DNA from: Clostridia bacterium
Lineage (GTDB): Bacteria > Bacillota > Clostridia > UBA1212
Reading direction: 5' to 3'
NCBI GenBank assembly: GCA_017625675.1
Contig: JAGAKK010000030.1
Span: 10,509 to 74,508 of the forward strand
DNA length: 64,000 bases
The position numbers were made by a program, and so were the translations under genes. A model generated the notes under the pieces. That model worked only from the letters and a program-made list of their open reading frames with translations, was not told the DNA's origin and ran no database searches. Shown one piece after another: positions 1-11,519 of the stretch; within the stretch, counting starts at the first letter, position 1, and every line of letters starts with the position of its first letter.

Positions 1-1095
1 AAAAATCCCAGTCCGGAGGACGTTGAAAAACTATGGAATTACAAGAACAGCGATAACGATAACGTTCAAAATGAAGACCAAAAAAAGAAGCATTACAAAT
101 ATTGGTCAGATTACACAACGGACACAAGAGAATTTGTGAAAAGTCACTTCGAAAAATACGATGGAGAGAAGCTTTTGTGGAACGTTTCTATCTCTGATTT
201 TTATGTTACCGGTTATAAGGAAATCTCGGACGGTGTGATTGTTTACGGAAAAACTCCCGGATTTTCCACTGGGGAAGATTCCTATGCATGGATGACGAAA
301 TATGATATTGACGGCAATATAATATGGAAAGTCAGAATAGAAAATGGGTTTTCTGTTGAGTATATCTCCGGAGTTTTCGAAGAAAAAGACGGAGGTTATA
401 CGATATTCACCCGAGGTGACCATTCATATTTTTGTCTTAGCAGGTACACTTCGGATGGAAAGAGGGTGCATTTCAAAAAAACAGATATAGACGATAACAG
501 CTTTAGCAACATCACGCGTTTCGGTGACGGCTACCTTGCCTTGTTTTGTAACAAACTGGTAGAGGAGAAAATAGTAAAGGTGGATCGGGACGGAAATATT
601 ACTGACTCTTTTTGTTATGATTCTGAGGATTCATATTACTACGTTAACGATATGATTGAATTTGACGGAAAGATATATCTGTCGACATACGTTGTGCCCA
701 AAATGCCTCCCGAATTAGAAGGGATATTGGCAAAAACTGAACTTGCCAATGTAACGTATTATCTATGGAAAAACAATATTACTGAGATTTCAGAAGAAGA
801 ACTTACTCCTATGCTAAGGGACAATTATACTGCAATGCTTCTGGTATGTGACCCTGACGTGGGTACACCGCAGGAATTTTATTCTGTTAAGGGTTCTATA
901 GGCGGAGCGCTTACGACAGACGCTTCCGGAAATTTATTGTGGGAAGTGGAAAGCATAGCAACGTCGTATTACTCGCCGTATACAAGCTCGTATACTTTTG
1001 GCGGAACGTGTTATCTGTATCGGTATGTCTTTGATGGTACGGGAAGTTTGCTTCGTCAGGAAGAAACAGGGGAGATTACAGAGTTAAGAAGGTAA
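1..1095 (+). CDS. Hypothetical protein, 5'-truncated by the window edge; possibly a beta-propeller-like extracellular protein
   Basis: Frame 1 is open from base 1 to TAA at 1093-1095, so the ORF-track start at 136 is internal. Repeated 'D.dGn.lW'-type motifs. Confidence 0.7.
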   Translation, partial: KNPSPEDVEKLWNYKNSDNDNVQNEDQKKKHYKYWSDYTTDTREFVKSHFEKYDGEKLLWNVSISDFYVTGYKEISDGVIVYGKTPGFSTGEDSYAWMTKYDIDGNIIWKVRIENGFSVEYISGVFEEKDGGYTIFTRGDHSYFCLSRYTSDGKRVHFKKTDIDDNSFSNITRFGDGYLALFCNKLVEEKIVKVDRDGNITDSFCYDSEDSYYYVNDMIEFDGKIYLSTYVVPKMPPELEGILAKTELANVTYYLWKNNITEISEEELTPMLRDNYTAMLLVCDPDVGTPQEFYSVKGSIGGALTTDASGNLLWEVESIATSYYSPYTSSYTFGGTCYLYRYVFDGTGSLLRQEETGEITELRR

Positions 1096-1103
1096 CGGAG
1101 GAG

Positions 1104-1133
1104 GCAACAGCTCCCTCTCGGGTTCGATTCCCA
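1104..1133 (+). repeat. 30-bp motif containing a T-arm-like GGGTTCGATTCCC, copy 1
   Basis: gcaacagctccctctcgggttcgattccca matches 1357-1386 at 28/30 positions. Confidence 0.9.
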
Positions 1134-1140
1134 GAATAAA

Positions 1141-1176
1141 AAAACAGAGCTACGATGTACGTAACTCTGTTTTTTT
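1141..1176. terminator. Bidirectional terminator-like hairpin
   Basis: aaaacagag-ctacg...cgta-actctgtttt with A and T tracts on either side. Confidence 0.7.
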
Positions 1177-1197
1177 GGTGACTCCTAGGGGAATCGA
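1176..1197 (-). repeat. Exact duplicate of the 3' 22 nt of tRNA-Glu (att-like site)
   Basis: tggtgactcctaggggaatcga is identical to 1437-1458. Confidence 0.92.
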
Positions 1198-1386
1198 CCG
1201 TCTGCTTCGCCGTGAAATACAATATAGGTACGGCTTGCATACTGCCGGCTCGACGACCGCTTCATTTCATTTGCGGTACCCGTCTGCGCCTATCTGCTGC
1301 TGAAATGTATTGTTAATACATTTCGACCGCGAAGTCTACAGTTTTATTGCGGTCACGCAGCAGCTCCCTCGCGGGTTCGATTCCCA
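1198..1386. other. Non-coding, multi-hairpin insert between the two tRNA-Glu 3' ends
   Basis: Stems at 1209-1234, 1256-1277, 1302-1324 (perfect 10 bp) and 1325-1354; ctgctgc (1294-1300) pairs with gcagcag (1357-1363). Confidence 0.6.
1357..1386 (+). repeat. 30-bp T-arm-like motif, copy 2
   Basis: gcagcagctccctcgcgggttcgattccca. Confidence 0.9.
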
Positions 1387-1402
1387 AAATGTAAGTAAAA
1401 AC

Positions 1403-1436
1403 AAAAAAACCACCTTGATCGGTGGTTTTCTGTTTT
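1403..1436 (-). terminator. Intrinsic terminator of tRNA-Glu
   Basis: aaaaccacc-ttgatc-ggtggtttt hairpin with a U tract on the minus strand. Confidence 0.8.
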
Positions 1437-1511
1437 TGGTGACTCCTAGGGGAATCGAACCCCTGTTTCCGCCGTGAGAGGGCGGCGTCTTAGCCTCTTG
1501 ACCAAGGAGCC
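1437..1511 (-). tRNA. tRNA-Glu (CTC)
   Basis: Reverse complement GGCTCCTTGGTCAAGAGGCTAAGACGCCGCCCTCTCACGGCGGAAACAGGGGTTCGATTCCCCTAGGAGTCACCA folds as a cloverleaf with encoded CCA. Confidence 0.97.
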
Positions 1512-1551: not shown

Positions 1552-1581
1552 AGTATACATTATTGTCGGGGCAGTTGTCAA
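1552..1581 (-). promoter_or_regulatory. sigmaA-type promoter for tRNA-Glu
   Basis: TTGACA-18 nt-TATACT on the minus strand with an AT-rich upstream region. Confidence 0.75.
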
Positions 1582-1738: not shown

Positions 1739-1781
1739 TAAAATGTTATTTGAACTTAATACTTCTAAGAGGGGATAAATT

Positions 1782-2513
1782 ATGTTTGATGTAAATAAAA
1801 TAAAAAATGATTGCGTGCAGTGGATCAGAGACTTTTTTGAAGAGAACGGCAAGGGATGTAATGCCGTTATCGGTATTTCCGGCGGAAAGGACAGTTCCAT
1901 TGCTGCGGCCCTTTGCGTGGAGGCTCTTGGCAAGGATCGCGTTATCGGCGTGTTGATGCCTTTCGGCGAGCAGCACGATATTGACATGGCATATTTGCTT
2001 GTAAATCATCTGGGTATTAAACATTACGTTGTTAATATAAAGGATGCAATGGACGGCATTCTGGGCAGTTTCCCGGAGGAGTTGCCGTTGTCTGTTCAGG
2101 CAAAGACTAATTTGCCCCCGCGAATCAGAATGTCTACTTTGTATGCTGTTTCTCAGAGCGTTAACGGCAGAGTGGTGAATACTTGTAATCTTTCCGAGGA
2201 TTGGGTAGGGTACTCCACCCGTTACGGCGACGCGGCAGGCGATTTCAGTCCTCTTTGCAATCTGACTGTTGCGGAGATAAAGCAGATAGGAAGGGTTCTG
2301 GGTCTTCCTGACGTTCTTGTTGACAAGGTGCCCATTGATGGCCTTTGCGGAAAGACTGACGAGGACAATTTAGGCTTTACTTATGCAGAGCTTGACCGCT
2401 ATATAAGGACCGGCGAGATTGATGACCTTGAGAAAAAGGCAAGGATTGACAGACTGCACAAAATGAATCTTTTTAAGCTGCAGATGATGCCGGGGTTTAA
2501 ACCCGAAATTTAA
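1782..2513 (+). CDS. nadE: NH3-dependent NAD+ synthetase
   Basis: SGGKDS PP-loop, R(I)RM..LY, GYSTRYGD and TDED.LG motifs; no glutaminase domain. Confidence 0.92.
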   Translation: MFDVNKIKNDCVQWIRDFFEENGKGCNAVIGISGGKDSSIAAALCVEALGKDRVIGVLMPFGEQHDIDMAYLLVNHLGIKHYVVNIKDAMDGILGSFPEELPLSVQAKTNLPPRIRMSTLYAVSQSVNGRVVNTCNLSEDWVGYSTRYGDAAGDFSPLCNLTVAEIKQIGRVLGLPDVLVDKVPIDGLCGKTDEDNLGFTYAELDRYIRTGEIDDLEKKARIDRLHKMNLFKLQMMPGFKPEI

Positions 2514-2558
2514 ACACTCAAATGTTCGATAATTGCAAAGAAATATTCGAAAAAATGC

Positions 2559-2587
2559 TTGATAAATTCTCGTTGGTGTGGTAGAAT
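2559..2587 (+). promoter_or_regulatory. sigmaA-type promoter for uvrB
   Basis: TTGATA-17 nt-TAGAAT with extended TG. Confidence 0.6.
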
Positions 2588-2639
2588 AACTACATTGACG
2601 AGAATTTCGCAGTTGAGAGGAAAGGACGTAGGTTTCGGG

Positions 2640-4751
2640 ATGGATCATTTTAAATTAGTATCTGAATATCAGCCCACGGGAGATCAGCCTCAGGCTATTG
2701 AAACCTTGGCGCGTGGTGTGCTGGCAGGAGAAAAATGTCAGACCCTTCTGGGTGTTACAGGCTCCGGAAAGACTTTTACCATGGCGAACGTTATTGCGAA
2801 GGTGAATAAGCCTACGTTGGTGCTTGCGCATAATAAGACTCTGGCAGCCCAGCTTTGTACGGAGCTTCGTGAGTTCTTTCCTGAGAATGCGGTGGAGTAT
2901 TTTGTTTCCTACTACGACTATTATCAGCCGGAGGCGTATATTGCGTCTTCTGATACTTACATTGAGAAAAACTCTCAGATAAATGAAGAGATTGACAGAT
3001 TGAGGCACTCCGCTACTGCGGCGTTGTTTGAAAGGCGAGATGTCATTATCGTAGCCAGTGTTTCCTGTATTTACGGTCTGGGCGATCCTGAAGATTACAC
3101 CGACCTTATGCTTTCTTTGCGTATCGGAATGGAGAAAGACCGTGACGAGATAATTGACAAGCTTGTTTCTATCAGGTACGAGAGAAATGATATGTCCTTG
3201 GAGAGAAATTGTTTCCGCGTGCGCGGTGATACCCTGGAGCTTATACCCTCGGATATGAATAACCATTTTATACGCGTGGAGTTCTGGGGAGATGAGATAG
3301 AGAAGATTACTGAGATAGATGCGGTTACCGGAGAGATATACGGAATCAGAAATCACGTTGCAGTTTTCCCTGCGTCCCACTATGCCACTACGAATGAGAA
3401 GTTGCTGGCGGCTACTGAAGAAATTCTTGCTGATATGGAGAAGCAGGTGGATATGTTTAATGCACAGGGGAAGCTTCTTGAGGCTTATCGTATTGAGCAA
3501 CGCACCCGTATGGATGTGGAGCTGATGCGTGAAACAGGCTTTTGCCAGGGCATTGAGAATTATTCCAGATATATAAGCGGCAGAGCGCCGGGGACACCTC
3601 CTTATACGCTTCTTGACTATTTCCCTGATGATTTTCTGCTGATGATTGATGAGTCCCACGTTACCGTGCCACAGGTAAGGGCTATGTATAATGGTGACCG
3701 CGCCAGAAAGACGTCCCTTGTGGAATATGGTTTCAGGTTGCCCTCTGCTTTTGATAACAGACCTCTTAATTTTGAAGAATTTGAGTCTAAGCTGAATCAG
3801 GTTATTTACGTAAGTGCTACGCCTGCAGAATACGAGCGGAAAAGGTCCTCCCAGGTGGCAGAGCAGATAATCAGGCCTACCGGATTGTTAGACCCTGAGG
3901 TGGTTGTAAGGCCCGTTGCGAATCAGGTGGACGATCTGGTTGATGAGATACGAAAATGTGTGGACAAGAATACCCGTGTATTGGTGACCACTCTCACTAA
4001 AAAAATGGCGGAGAGCCTTACGGAGTATCTTGAAAAAATGAATATTAAGGTGCGCTATCTGCACTCCGACGTGCATACCATTGAGCGAATGGAGATCATA
4101 AGAGACCTGCGTTTAGGCGTTTTTGACGTGCTGGTGGGTATTAACCTTCTGAGGGAGGGTCTTGATATTCCCGAAGTTTCTCTGGTGGCGGTGCTGGACG
4201 CTGACAAGGAAGGTTTCCTGCGTTCTGAAACGTCACTTATTCAGACTATTGGCCGTGCGGCGAGAAATGCCGAGGGCAGAGTAATTATGTATGCAGATAC
4301 CATTACAGATTCCTTGAAAAGGGCGATGGACGAAACCTTCCGGAGAAGGTCTATACAGGACGAGTATAATAAGGCTCATGGTATTGTGCCGAAGACGATT
4401 AAAAAAGATGTGCTCGAAATAATAGAGTCCCTTAAATCGGATGATGATTCCAAGAAGGGCGGCAATAAGAAAGGTGGCCGTGGCAAGGGATATGCGGCAG
4501 GTGGCCTTACCGATTTTGTGGGCAATGCAGGACACCAGGGTCTTGGAGAAAATGCTCCTCGTAGGACGCTTGGTGTTCTTTACGAGCAGGCAAAGCGTTT
4601 TGTGCCGGGCCTTGATGAAGGTGTTGAGCCTTATGTGGCGGCGGACCTTCTGAGAAATGCAATGGTGGCATATTCTGCGGAGATGGAGTTTGAAAAAGCA
4701 GCCAAGGCCCGTGACCTGATGCGTGAGTTTGAAAAATTGGCGCTTATGTAA
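2640..4751 (+). CDS. uvrB: Excinuclease ABC subunit B
   Basis: [18 protein letters not shown] beta-hairpin, DESH and C-terminal UVR 'FEKAAK.RD'; start moved to ATG 2640. Confidence 0.97.
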
Positions 4752-10304: not shown

Positions 10305-11519
10305 ATGAAATTTATAGAAAACGGAACAGTTACTTCACCTAAGGGATTTAAAGCGGCAGGTGTTTCTGCGGGACTTAAAGCAAACGGAAAGAAGGATCTC
10401 GCACTTGTAGTTTCCGATAACGTTGCAAATGCTGCAGGTGTGTACACCAGAAACCTTGTAAAGGGTCATTCTTTGCAGCTCACAATAAAAAATATGGCAG
10501 GCAGAGAGCTTAAAGCTGTGGCGGTAAACAGCGGTTGCGCCAATGCCTGTGCAGGAAGAGCCGGCGAAGAGGCTGCAGAAATCGTGTGCAAGAAAGTTGC
10601 CGGGATTTTGGGAACGGAGAAAGAGAAGATTGCCGTAGGTTCTACAGGTGTTATAGGCTACGTATTGCCCCATGAAAAAATCACTGCAGGTATTGAAAGA
10701 GCATGCAAAGAATTATCTTACGATGAAGATGGCGGCCACAATGCTGAAATGGCTATTATGACTACTGACACAGTGCCCAAGGAGTTTGCCGTAAGTGTGG
10801 ATATCGGCGGAAAAGAAGTAATCGTAGGCGGTATGGCAAAAGGTTCCGGAATGATTCATCCCAATATGGGAACAATGATTTCCATAGTTACAACTGATGC
10901 AAAGGTAAGCAAGGAAGTGCTTGATTATGCGTTGAAAAAGGTTACCGAGGTGACTTTCAACAGAGTATCGGTTGACGGTGATACTTCAGTTTGTGACATG
11001 TGTCTTGTAATGGCAAACGGACAGGCCGGAAATGATGAAATTACTTCTGTGGACAGCGAAGAAGCAAAGTTGTTTACAGAGGCTCTTCATAAAGTCTGTG
11101 ACAGCCTTGCAAGAGGCCTTGCCAAGGACGGTGAGGGCGCTACTAAACTTCTTGAGGTGTGTGTGGAAAATGCTCCCACTGCTGAAGACGCATACAAAAT
11201 TGCTCTTGCTGTTGCAAAATCACCTCTTTGTAAAACTGCTTTCTTTGGAGAAGACGCAAACTGGGGAAGAATTCTCACTGCGGCAGGATATTCAGGAGCG
11301 CAGTTTGATCCTCTGAGAGTTGATATTTATATCGGAGATGTGAAGGTATGCGAAAATGGTGAGGCATTGCCTTTTGATGAGGATGCTGCCCTTGCTATAC
11401 TTAAGAAAAACGAAATTAAAGTTCTTATAGATATGCTTGACGGAACCTTTAACGACAAGATGTGGACTTGTGATTTTTCTTATGACTACGTAAAAATTAA
11501 CGGAAGCTACAGAACTTGA
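10305..11519 (+). CDS. argJ: Ornithine acetyltransferase ArgJ
   Basis: IMTTDT, KGSGMIHPNMGT autocleavage region, DGEGATK, NWGRI. Confidence 0.95.
   Translation: MKFIENGTVTSPKGFKAAGVSAGLKANGKKDLALVVSDNVANAAGVYTRNLVKGHSLQLTIKNMAGRELKAVAVNSGCANACAGRAGEEAAEIVCKKVAGILGTEKEKIAVGSTGVIGYVLPHEKITAGIERACKELSYDEDGGHNAEMAIMTTDTVPKEFAVSVDIGGKEVIVGGMAKGSGMIHPNMGTMISIVTTDAKVSKEVLDYALKKVTEVTFNRVSVDGDTSVCDMCLVMANGQAGNDEITSVDSEEAKLFTEALHKVCDSLARGLAKDGEGATKLLEVCVENAPTAEDAYKIALAVAKSPLCKTAFFGEDANWGRILTAAGYSGAQFDPLRVDIYIGDVKVCENGEALPFDEDAALAILKKNEIKVLIDMLDGTFNDKMWTCDFSYDYVKINGSYRT

Follow-up and report, generated by a model that had tools for sequence, protein, structure and literature searches.

Repeats linked to tRNA genes have been on record in Escherichia coli since 1978, and 22 such tRNA-linked repeats (TLRs) are counted in strain K-12, spread over ten loci that hold one to five of them each (Stenum et al. 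2021, PMC8144298). According to the same report, 18–19 bp of the tRNA 3' end recur at the unit end, and read-through transcription is described for the rrA, rrB and rrF members; its passages on TLRs assign neither a function nor an origin to the tRNA-linked ones. Literature searches yielded no account of comparable units in organisms other than E. coli. The window analysed here, the whole 64,000-nucleotide (nt) stretch from position 10,509 to position 74,508 of contig JAGAKK010000030.1 in a Clostridia assembly (GCA_017625675.1; 1.65 Mb, 76% complete), opens at its tRNA-Glu(CTC) gene onto a second, much larger family with TLR anatomy, which is undescribed as far as could be found. We consider it reasonably probable that this locus is a short array, made of one full and one 5'-truncated unit, of a tRNA-linked repeat of the E. 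coli TLR/RtT kind, with the mode of expression, copy-number change and spread proposed below. The family shows presence/absence and copy-number polymorphism, target-specific arms, a wide distribution and a conserved fold. The features of the locus are listed hereafter, from the tRNA gene and its promoter outwards.

1437–1511, minus strand: tRNA-Glu(CTC) gene, intact, with encoded CCA (ARAGORN; Infernal with the Rfam tRNA model, 62.6 bits).
1552–1581, minus strand: promoter-like site of the tRNA-Glu gene, TTGACA-18-TATACT, 11/12 (consensus scan; putative function).
1398–1437, no strand assigned: terminator A, made of an A run, a hairpin and a T run, bidirectional (repeat search).
1373–1385, minus strand: arm Y, an inverted copy of the tRNA-Glu T arm (GGGTTCGATTCCC on the plus strand; repeat search, folds).
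1366–1375, minus strand: P5 hairpin CCC-TCGC-GGG, with a GCGA loop on the tRNA strand (fold, covariation with the target T stem).
1198–1365, minus strand: multi-hairpin conserved body of the full unit (alignments, compensatory pairs).
1176–1197, minus strand: arm X, a 22-nt copy of the tRNA-Glu 3' end from T loop to CCA, exactly as in 1437–1458 (repeat search).
1138–1176, no strand assigned: terminator B, of a sequence unrelated to terminator A (repeat search).
1104–1137, minus strand: outer 5'-truncated unit, with the final 16 nt of a body and an inverted T-arm copy (1120–1132), 31/34 against the inner one (repeat search).
1–1095, plus strand: 3' part of an open reading frame (ORF; 485 aa in total, no Pfam match) in flanking chromosomal DNA outside the element (ORF list, Pfam).

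Two direct repeats organise the locus. A 26-nt run (TTTTTGGTGACTCCTAGGGGAATCGA, corresponding to 22 nt of tRNA and a T run) is identical at 1172–1197 and 1433–1458, with a spacing of 261, and a 34-mer recurs at 1104–1137 and 1357–1390 with 31/34 identities and a spacing of 253. Each 34-mer contains an exact 13-nt inverted copy of the tRNA T arm (1373–1385 and 1120–1132, against 1450–1462 in the gene). From the tRNA 3' end outwards, the order is terminator A, the 34-mer at 1357–1390, a 158-nt stretch, the 22-nt copy, terminator B and the 34-mer at 1104–1137. A preliminary description of this DNA had recognised a module of tRNA end, terminator and 30-bp motif, occurring twice about 260 bp apart with identical tRNA ends, near-identical 30-mers and different terminators. 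This repetition is indeed found, and the terminator hairpins at 1138–1176 and 1398–1437 are unlike in sequence. The insert, then described as non-coding and structured, has a fold z-score of -3.5 on one strand and -3.3 on the other over the stretch between the repeats, and belongs to a covarying family. The module boundaries have to be redrawn, since they do not coincide with those of the real unit: what was called the 30-mer comprises the final part of the body and the inverted T-arm copy, and is not a separate motif. The full unit extends over 1176–1436, beginning 1 nt past the tRNA end, and the 5'-truncated unit over 1104–1175. Terminator A is considered as part of the unit because it can be aligned with the terminator of the tmRNA-linked copy mentioned below. 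In the predicted folds, arm Y (1373–1385) pairs with 1189–1197, and this helix, named P1, closes the unit.

As a literal sequence, the repeat is local, since the 34-mer (up to 7 mismatches) occurs in the assembly only at the window locus, and the 22-mer (up to 4 mismatches) only there and in the tRNA-Glu(TTC) gene. The search for the 30-mer elsewhere in the genome, suggested in the preliminary description, is thus negative for the 34-mer itself but positive for homologous units, which are present at four more loci. A tmRNA locus was found through the 13-mer; there, a homologous 190-nt stretch has the tmRNA gene on one side and a partial copy of the 3' end of this gene on the other. BLAST and R1, a covariance model built from five copies, give five homologous units in the genome, next to tRNA-Glu(CTC), tmRNA, tRNA-Met, tRNA-Lys(CTT) and tRNA-Arg(ACG). 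In each of them, the left arm corresponds to the reverse complement of the 3' end of its own neighbour as far as the T loop, and the right arm repeats the T arm of this same neighbour in sense orientation. The body, and even the terminator, can be aligned as homologous between these loci. The 5', middle and 3' motifs of the unit occur only together in motif scans of the genome, with no split or autonomous copy, and no ORF was found inside the units. An origin of the body from a tRNA was also considered and rejected: when five bodies were aligned locally with each of the 27 tRNAs that the genome encodes, in both orientations, the scores did not exceed the median of 100 shuffles. Of note, ARAGORN calls a spurious permuted tmRNA (tmRNA*) outside the window (G000:C27:45347-45784), which spans the tmRNA-linked unit and the true tmRNA 3' end; units of this family are thus able to mislead tmRNA and tRNA finders, and hence annotation.

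The common plan of the family reads, on the tRNA strand, as a terminator, an antisense copy of the T arm, a capped hairpin including the sense 5' strand of the T stem, the body, a sense copy of the tRNA end and the next terminator. The conserved multi-hairpin body comprises 100–180 nt, and the copied tail corresponds to the last 17–22 nt of the tRNA. On the body strand, the reverse complement of the tRNA from about position 55/59 to 76 comes first, followed by the body, 3–4 nt complementary to the 5' strand of the T stem, a short loop and the sense copy of the T arm (13–26 nt, extending through the acceptor strand in some copies), and then by a spacer, the bidirectional terminator and the tRNA gene. 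P1 is formed by the two tRNA-derived arms, and P5 by pairing of the short strand with the start of the T-arm copy. Since the arms pair and close the fold, the unit resembles the 3' portion of a tRNA with a large structured insert in its T loop. The arm matches the neighbouring tRNA in every copy checked; the shared tRNA-end stretch is 16–32 nt long at most loci and shorter in decayed copies.

The similarity with the E. coli repeats is found at the level of this plan. The 178-bp unit of the K-12 tyrT-tyrV-rttR locus, read on the tRNA strand, includes GGGGAAGGAT, antisense to positions 59–68 of tRNA-Tyr, then a small hairpin with AAGGTTCGA, sense to positions 50–58, then a body and finally AATCCTTCCCCCACCACCA, sense to positions 58–76. 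Its predicted fold is closed by a 10-bp helix of both arms, and the plan is that of the window unit. Like the E. coli TLRs (the tyrT 178-bp repeats/RttR, RtT in Rfam, RF00391, and the rrA, rrB and rrF members), the units described here are non-coding, lie directly downstream of a stable RNA gene, tRNA or rRNA in E. coli, and carry a copy of its end. The window unit follows its tRNA after 1 nt and has a 22-nt identical tail, as compared with 18–19 bp in E. coli; the window locus, with one full and one truncated unit, is within the E. coli range of one to five units per locus, as are the arrays of two and three units found in other genomes. A comparable arrangement is that of the rrnB T1-rrB-T2 small RNA, also structured and non-coding, which is placed between two terminators behind a highly transcribed stable RNA gene and ends in a copy of the 3' end of this gene (PMC8144298); the E. 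coli rrn members bind Hfq and CsrA by means of GGA motifs, no such property being known for the units described here. Differences are observed as well. Each unit here has its own bidirectional terminator, unlike the E. coli tyrT units, and as compared with RtT the multi-branched body is larger, the tail copy is 17–22 nt long and the hosts are Clostridia and Actinomycetota. In Rfam 15, the enterobacterial RtT is the only model for tRNA-linked repeats. Searches with this library (E≤10 for positions 900–1900 of the window, E≤0.01 for 13 related loci) detected nothing beyond tRNAs and chance matches, and RtT (RF00391) had no match in either; the positive control gave 4 RtT matches of 133–138 bits in E. 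coli K-12. Conversely, R1 had no match at the E. coli tyrT locus. The units are classed as being of the TLR kind, and neither as members of the Rfam RtT family, nor as integron-like, nor as proven integrase-dependent elements.

The fold is maintained through compensatory changes. Among the five copies of the genome, 13 of the 58 predicted pairs are compensatory. When 47 matches are aligned, 91.6% of the cells are paired, against 35–44% with the partners slid, and double changes are seen in 47 of the 58 pairs, this alignment being fitted to the model. A sequence-only alignment of 24 units still has 18 compensatory pairs out of 27. Compensatory changes are present in four helices of the body. 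The arms follow their target too: the P5 strands change from ACCC/GGGT to ACTC/GAGT exactly where the T stem of the target changes, namely at tRNA-Ser(GGA) and at one tmRNA. Another example is a pair of near-identical bodies, one at tRNA-Ala(CGC) in genome G008 and the other at tRNA-Ser(GGA) in genome G011, in which all three target-matching segments are switched. Some variation in length was also noticed in one genus, with two long variants, L029 (G009:C139:1643-1939, 297 nt) and L038 (G009:C81:11766-12024, 259 nt), which contain an extra insert with the hairpin CCCCAAAAGTGCAAGCACTTTCGGGG. This hairpin also stands alone beside other units of the genus (in the flanks of L027, L035, L031 and L034), where an inverted T-arm copy sometimes adjoins it without a gap; it may be either a second small repeat family or a subdomain of the unit.

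The comparison of the locus across relatives and strains, another suggestion of the preliminary description, reveals that it does vary. In the sister genome G001, as well as in G002 and G003, the tRNA-Glu(CTC) gene is followed only by a terminator and these sites are empty. Contigs assembled from public runs have the window form in run X1, and as far as 1197 in run X8. A contig of run X5 joins 1103 to 1357 and thus skips 253 bp (1104–1356), the flank, one 34-mer, terminator A and the tRNA being left. In the X8 variant, 40 other letters, which form a third terminator, stand between 1130 and 1433. The junction between the outer truncated unit and the flank is retained in the contigs of both X5 and X8. 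Excision as a circle would account for the empty sites and for the form shorter by 253 bp, which homologous recombination explains as well. At the family level, outer 5'-truncated copies are seen at about 10 of the 22 loci with enough flank, cut at varied points, and the others carry the tRNA-end repeat only. Alignment of the tRNA-Glu and tmRNA copies indicates that the terminator travels with the unit. One lineage of bodies is found at tRNA-Glu, tmRNA, tRNA-Met and tRNA-Lys, with the correct ends for each of them. Moreover, tRNA genes without encoded CCA have copies without CCA (L022, L023, L053), and the template of the tail is therefore DNA or a precursor rather than the mature tRNA. In practice, the units mark tRNA loci as variable spots in metagenome assemblies.

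Within the order (UBA1212), R1 matches 16 of 46 genomes. Of its 34 listed matches, 31 could be examined, three being without a locus. Twenty-five of these 31 are located on the 3' side of a convergent tRNA or tmRNA gene, at a distance of 10–76 nt from its end, two are the outer members of tandem pairs, and the remaining four, which have no called tRNA, correspond to one contig end, two cases of masked bases and one case truly without a tRNA. In the full unit L036 (G019:C10:13048-13185), the left arm copies a tRNA 3' end, with no tRNA gene in the 475 nt available on the expected side; it is either an orphan unit or one whose tRNA was displaced by an insertion. In an even sample of the class, R1 matches 29 of 150 genomes (28 of the 147 high-quality ones); a single genome has as many as 11 copies, and some copies follow each other in twos or threes; the 18 loci fetched contain 22 units, 17 of which lie 35–52 nt from a convergent tRNA. 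Since R1, the sole search model, is biased towards the subfamily of the window, these prevalence figures are floors. An exact-pattern scan of reference genomes found the same plan, among the matches listed, in Collinsella, Coriobacteriales, Adlercreutzia, Mobiluncus curtisii, Ruminiclostridium hungatei and several metagenome-assembled genomes of Clostridia; many of the matches are true tRNA-Ser genes, and the scan is informative about presence in these taxa, not about frequency. In R. hungatei DSM 14427, 7 matches were found, three of them in a row. For the Collinsella-type family, 55 of 81 genomes are BLAST-positive, some matches covering only the tRNA-derived ends. Tandem head-to-tail arrays include two full copies in G013, two in Mobiluncus and in Collinsella, and three in G079 and in R. 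hungatei. The family is thus present in about one-fifth of the sampled Clostridia genomes and in gut Actinomycetota such as Collinsella, with R. hungatei DSM 14427, Collinsella aerofaciens and M. curtisii ATCC 35241 as cultured carriers. Its diversity, sufficient for strong covariation, its target-specific arms, its gain and loss between strains and its cultured carriers make an old question about TLRs directly testable, namely whether the units are RNAs that are processed and serve some purpose at tRNA genes, or selfish repeats, or the two at once, and how the tRNA tail gets copied.

What we infer about the transcription strand, processing, function and insertion chemistry of the units can be put together as follows. 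By analogy with E. coli, the unit would be transcribed from the tRNA promoter by read-through of terminator A, as an RNA of the tRNA strand, and the site at 1552–1581 could drive this read-through into the unit too. The unit RNA would then be excised by enzymes recognising its tRNA-like end. Units may be gained and lost through recombination between the repeated arms. Spread would involve insertion in the T loop of a new tRNA gene, which would duplicate the 3' end of this gene and bring in a new terminator, with an insertion machinery presumably acting in trans. Two hints of this strand are the 11/12 score of the tRNA promoter and the P5 loop, for which the tRNA strand shows the GNGA type in 26 of the 52 distinct units, such as the GCGA loop of the window.

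Several observations weigh against this proposal. GNGA loops are found in only half of the 52 units, 15 of the others having 5-nt loops and 11 being not parsed. The RNA data consist of unstranded Logan contigs (run X19), one of which covers 1079–1235 and none 1301–1400, where lack of coverage proves nothing. Base-pair exchanges are ambiguous about the strand, with G.U and A.C counts of 76 and 27 in the raw data, in an alignment that was fitted to the plus-strand model, falling to about 21 and 20 without helix 1 and one dominant pair; on the sequence-only alignment, the counts are 26 and 13. The asymmetry of the A and T runs in 47 terminators is uninformative in this respect, because the runs pair with each other. 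Expression by read-through may be low, since bidirectional terminators separate the tRNA from the unit, unlike in E. coli tyrT. The outer 5'-truncated copies, seen at about half of the loci with enough flank, are not predicted by simple unequal crossing-over. There is no detectable homology to the E. coli RtT, and the likeness could be convergent. Lastly, the model does not account for the match that arm Y and the P5 strand acquire to every newly reached tRNA.

Because this tuning of the arms and the copying of the tail are unexplained, there is room for a guided, T-loop-directed insertion mechanism. In its most extended version, which looks quite unlikely to us, the units would be pan-bacterial gene-less mobile elements that use base pairing to home to tRNA and tmRNA genes, at the T loop. 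Built-in guides, or a target mimic, would then be provided by the P5 strand and the inverted T-arm copy in order to choose the matching T arm. A long staggered cut, from the T loop to the gene end, would duplicate the 17–22-nt tail, so that the tRNA stays whole and gains a terminator. A protein of the host, or one not linked to the units for another reason, would act as the enzyme, and the class would include the E. coli TLRs as old members. Another possibility, that of the preliminary description and rather unlikely in our opinion, relies on a known type of element. Cis-mobilizable elements (CIMEs), like other integrative elements of tRNA genes that are not autonomous, depend on the integrase of an integrative and conjugative element or of a phage, which acts on them in trans. 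Miniature elements of this type would have an attP site containing the tRNA 3' end and a terminator, and would be inserted at the T loop by a tyrosine integrase encoded elsewhere, the repeats stacking up. The direct repeat of the tRNA 3' end, from T loop to CCA, does bracket the element, the T loop is a known place of integrase crossover, the unit carries its terminator along, and both the tandem arrays and the strain forms differing by one unit and by a terminator would be expected. CIMEs and the present units also share the absence of an own recombinase and tandem accretion at a regenerated site. CIMEs are kilobases long, however, whereas the units measure 150–300 bp, have no genes, and show a covarying fold, an inverted T-arm copy and one lineage at several tRNAs. 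Ends borne by the element would yield chimeric tRNAs, yet a single lineage is found at four RNAs with correct ends, and compensatory changes in four body helices are unexpected for arm sites bound by a protein. Tyrosine recombinases are found in all five multi-copy genomes tested, which is uninformative because they are universal. By Pfam, no integrase, transposase or reverse transcriptase is encoded in the 11 ORFs of the distal 11.7 kb beyond the outer module, nor in 27 ORFs flanking other units, and no helper was identified among these flanking ORFs, a helper acting in trans being still conceivable; the only integrase seen beside units, in genome G166, serves an island at the anticodon loop. 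Phages provide no vehicle either: a pattern scan of viral contigs gave 29 loci, most of them inside phage tRNA genes (chiefly tRNA-Ser) and about ten without a tRNA at the match, R1 gave 5 weak matches in viral contigs (E 0.002–0.07), judged to be due to chance, and BLAST of one unit against 50,697 phage records gave nothing. Folded single-stranded attachment sites are known for integrons (attC) and for CTX phage, whose attP is used by the host Xer recombinases, and the folded arms of the units recall them, as a duplex site similar to the T arm is formed again. Common to both are a pair of inverted arms, located on one strand, that restore a target-like duplex, conservation of structure more than of sequence, arrays at a regenerated site and, in the Xer case, no need for an element-borne integrase. 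The target is nevertheless a tRNA T arm instead of dif or attI, no single-stranded DNA intermediate is in evidence, and intI, attI and cassette ORFs are all missing at the locus, where attC core sequences were not searched.

The remaining explanations concern the strand, the template and the origin of the repeat. The unit could be a small-RNA gene of its own, encoded on the other strand than the tRNA and convergent with it on a shared bidirectional terminator, the 5' end of this RNA being antisense to the last 17–22 nt of the tRNA and acting on the tRNA or its precursor. A bidirectional terminator at the 3' end of the unit on that strand, the equally good fold, the raw G.U excess (76 against 27, and 26 against 13 on the sequence-only alignment) and a weak promoter-like site (1194–1223, 9/12) would all fit. 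This site, which belongs to a variable loop, would however give transcripts beginning within the body; a conserved promoter is impossible, since only an old terminator and arbitrary flank lie upstream of the unit, and the G.U excess is gone once three suspect pairs are removed. With the E. coli counterparts being RNAs of the tRNA strand, according to the K-12 annotation and to the passages on TLRs in PMC8144298, we regard such a gene as improbable. A retroelement-like RNA, whose 5' arm would be a primer-binding site for the neighbouring tRNA, with tRNA-primed reverse transcription and recombination into the tRNA gene, accounts for an arm complementary to the last 17–22 nt of the tRNA and ending near A58, and for the 5' truncation of some outer copies. 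Retroviral primer-binding sites likewise end near A58. This scheme is very improbable and was rejected on two grounds. Among the 16 genomes of the order that bear units, 7 lack the reverse transcriptase domain RVT_1, with G019, G011 and G009 (92–96% complete) among them, and it is also missing from 4 of 5 multi-copy genomes, including G055, which has 11 copies and is 100% complete; in addition, the CCA-less copies at CCA-less genes rule out a mature tRNA template. Hardly any credence can be given to a one-off local duplication, or to functionless, decayed att scars of a lost island. The confinement of the literal 34-mer and 22-mer to the window locus in this genome does point that way, and is overruled by the family, with covarying homologous units at five loci of the genome and in dozens of genomes from two phyla. 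Extension to the left, which the preliminary description recommended, met no third module or integrase upstream, and this alone does not indicate a one-off duplication.

We thus retain the tRNA-linked repeat as the preferred reading, and several proposals of the preliminary description can be placed with respect to it. Small, non-coding and non-autonomous units that stack were correctly anticipated, units being found at many tRNA genes and head-to-tail arrays in several genomes. The inverted T-arm copies, the homologous units with ends of other tRNAs and the likeness to the E. coli repeats had no place in this description. The involvement of an integrase, proposed in the same description, receives no support from the distal 11.7 kb or from the 27 flanking ORFs, the G166 integrase belonging to a tRNA-splitting island, and the integron analogy is not supported for units devoid of any gene at a locus devoid of intI and attI. 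The second module does abut a gene, as the stop codon of the ORF at 1–1095 lies 8 bp from the 34-mer, with no sign of this gene being a cargo: it is the second gene of a pair with an extracytoplasmic function (ECF) sigma factor, among housekeeping genes such as those of PolA and CoaE.

The 11 ORFs of the distal 11.7 kb include a peptidase, PolA, CoaE, YdcZ, CotH, a lipase, the ECF sigma factor and the 485-aa ORF, and NadE, UvrB and UvrA are encoded on the other side of the tRNA. The gene of the ECF sigma factor overlaps the start of the 485-aa ORF, upstream of the part seen in the window (locus L043, 9580–11603, which corresponds to the window up to 1095), and the 485-aa protein is possibly the anti-sigma partner of this factor. 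At the locus of the G166 island mentioned above (L212, G166:C6:5500-12500, at about 1781–3720), the gene of a 435-aa tyrosine integrase is followed by a tRNA 3' fragment starting in the anticodon loop and by two tandem units; as the fragment begins at the anticodon loop, the island has split the tRNA, and the units were carried off with the displaced 3' half. Defence-like or accessory genes are found on the distal side of several units (L018 in G013, L040 in G004 and L027 in G008), their products including an AbiEii toxin domain, a DUF4143 ATPase and a SEFIR/TIR protein, which agrees with a role of the 3' flanks of tRNA genes as variable sites for islands. Just upstream of the tRNA-Glu promoter, at 1640–1703 (arms 1640–1666 and 1677–1703), there is also an inverted repeat of 27 nt without mismatches; positions 1618–1628 and 1639–1649 are likewise concerned. 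The Rfam microRNA matches obtained at this palindrome are due to chance and stem from the long hairpin. Its arm has 82 matches with up to 4 mismatches across 43 contigs of the genome, and the palindrome is therefore a dispersed repeat resembling the repetitive extragenic palindromic (REP) sequences.

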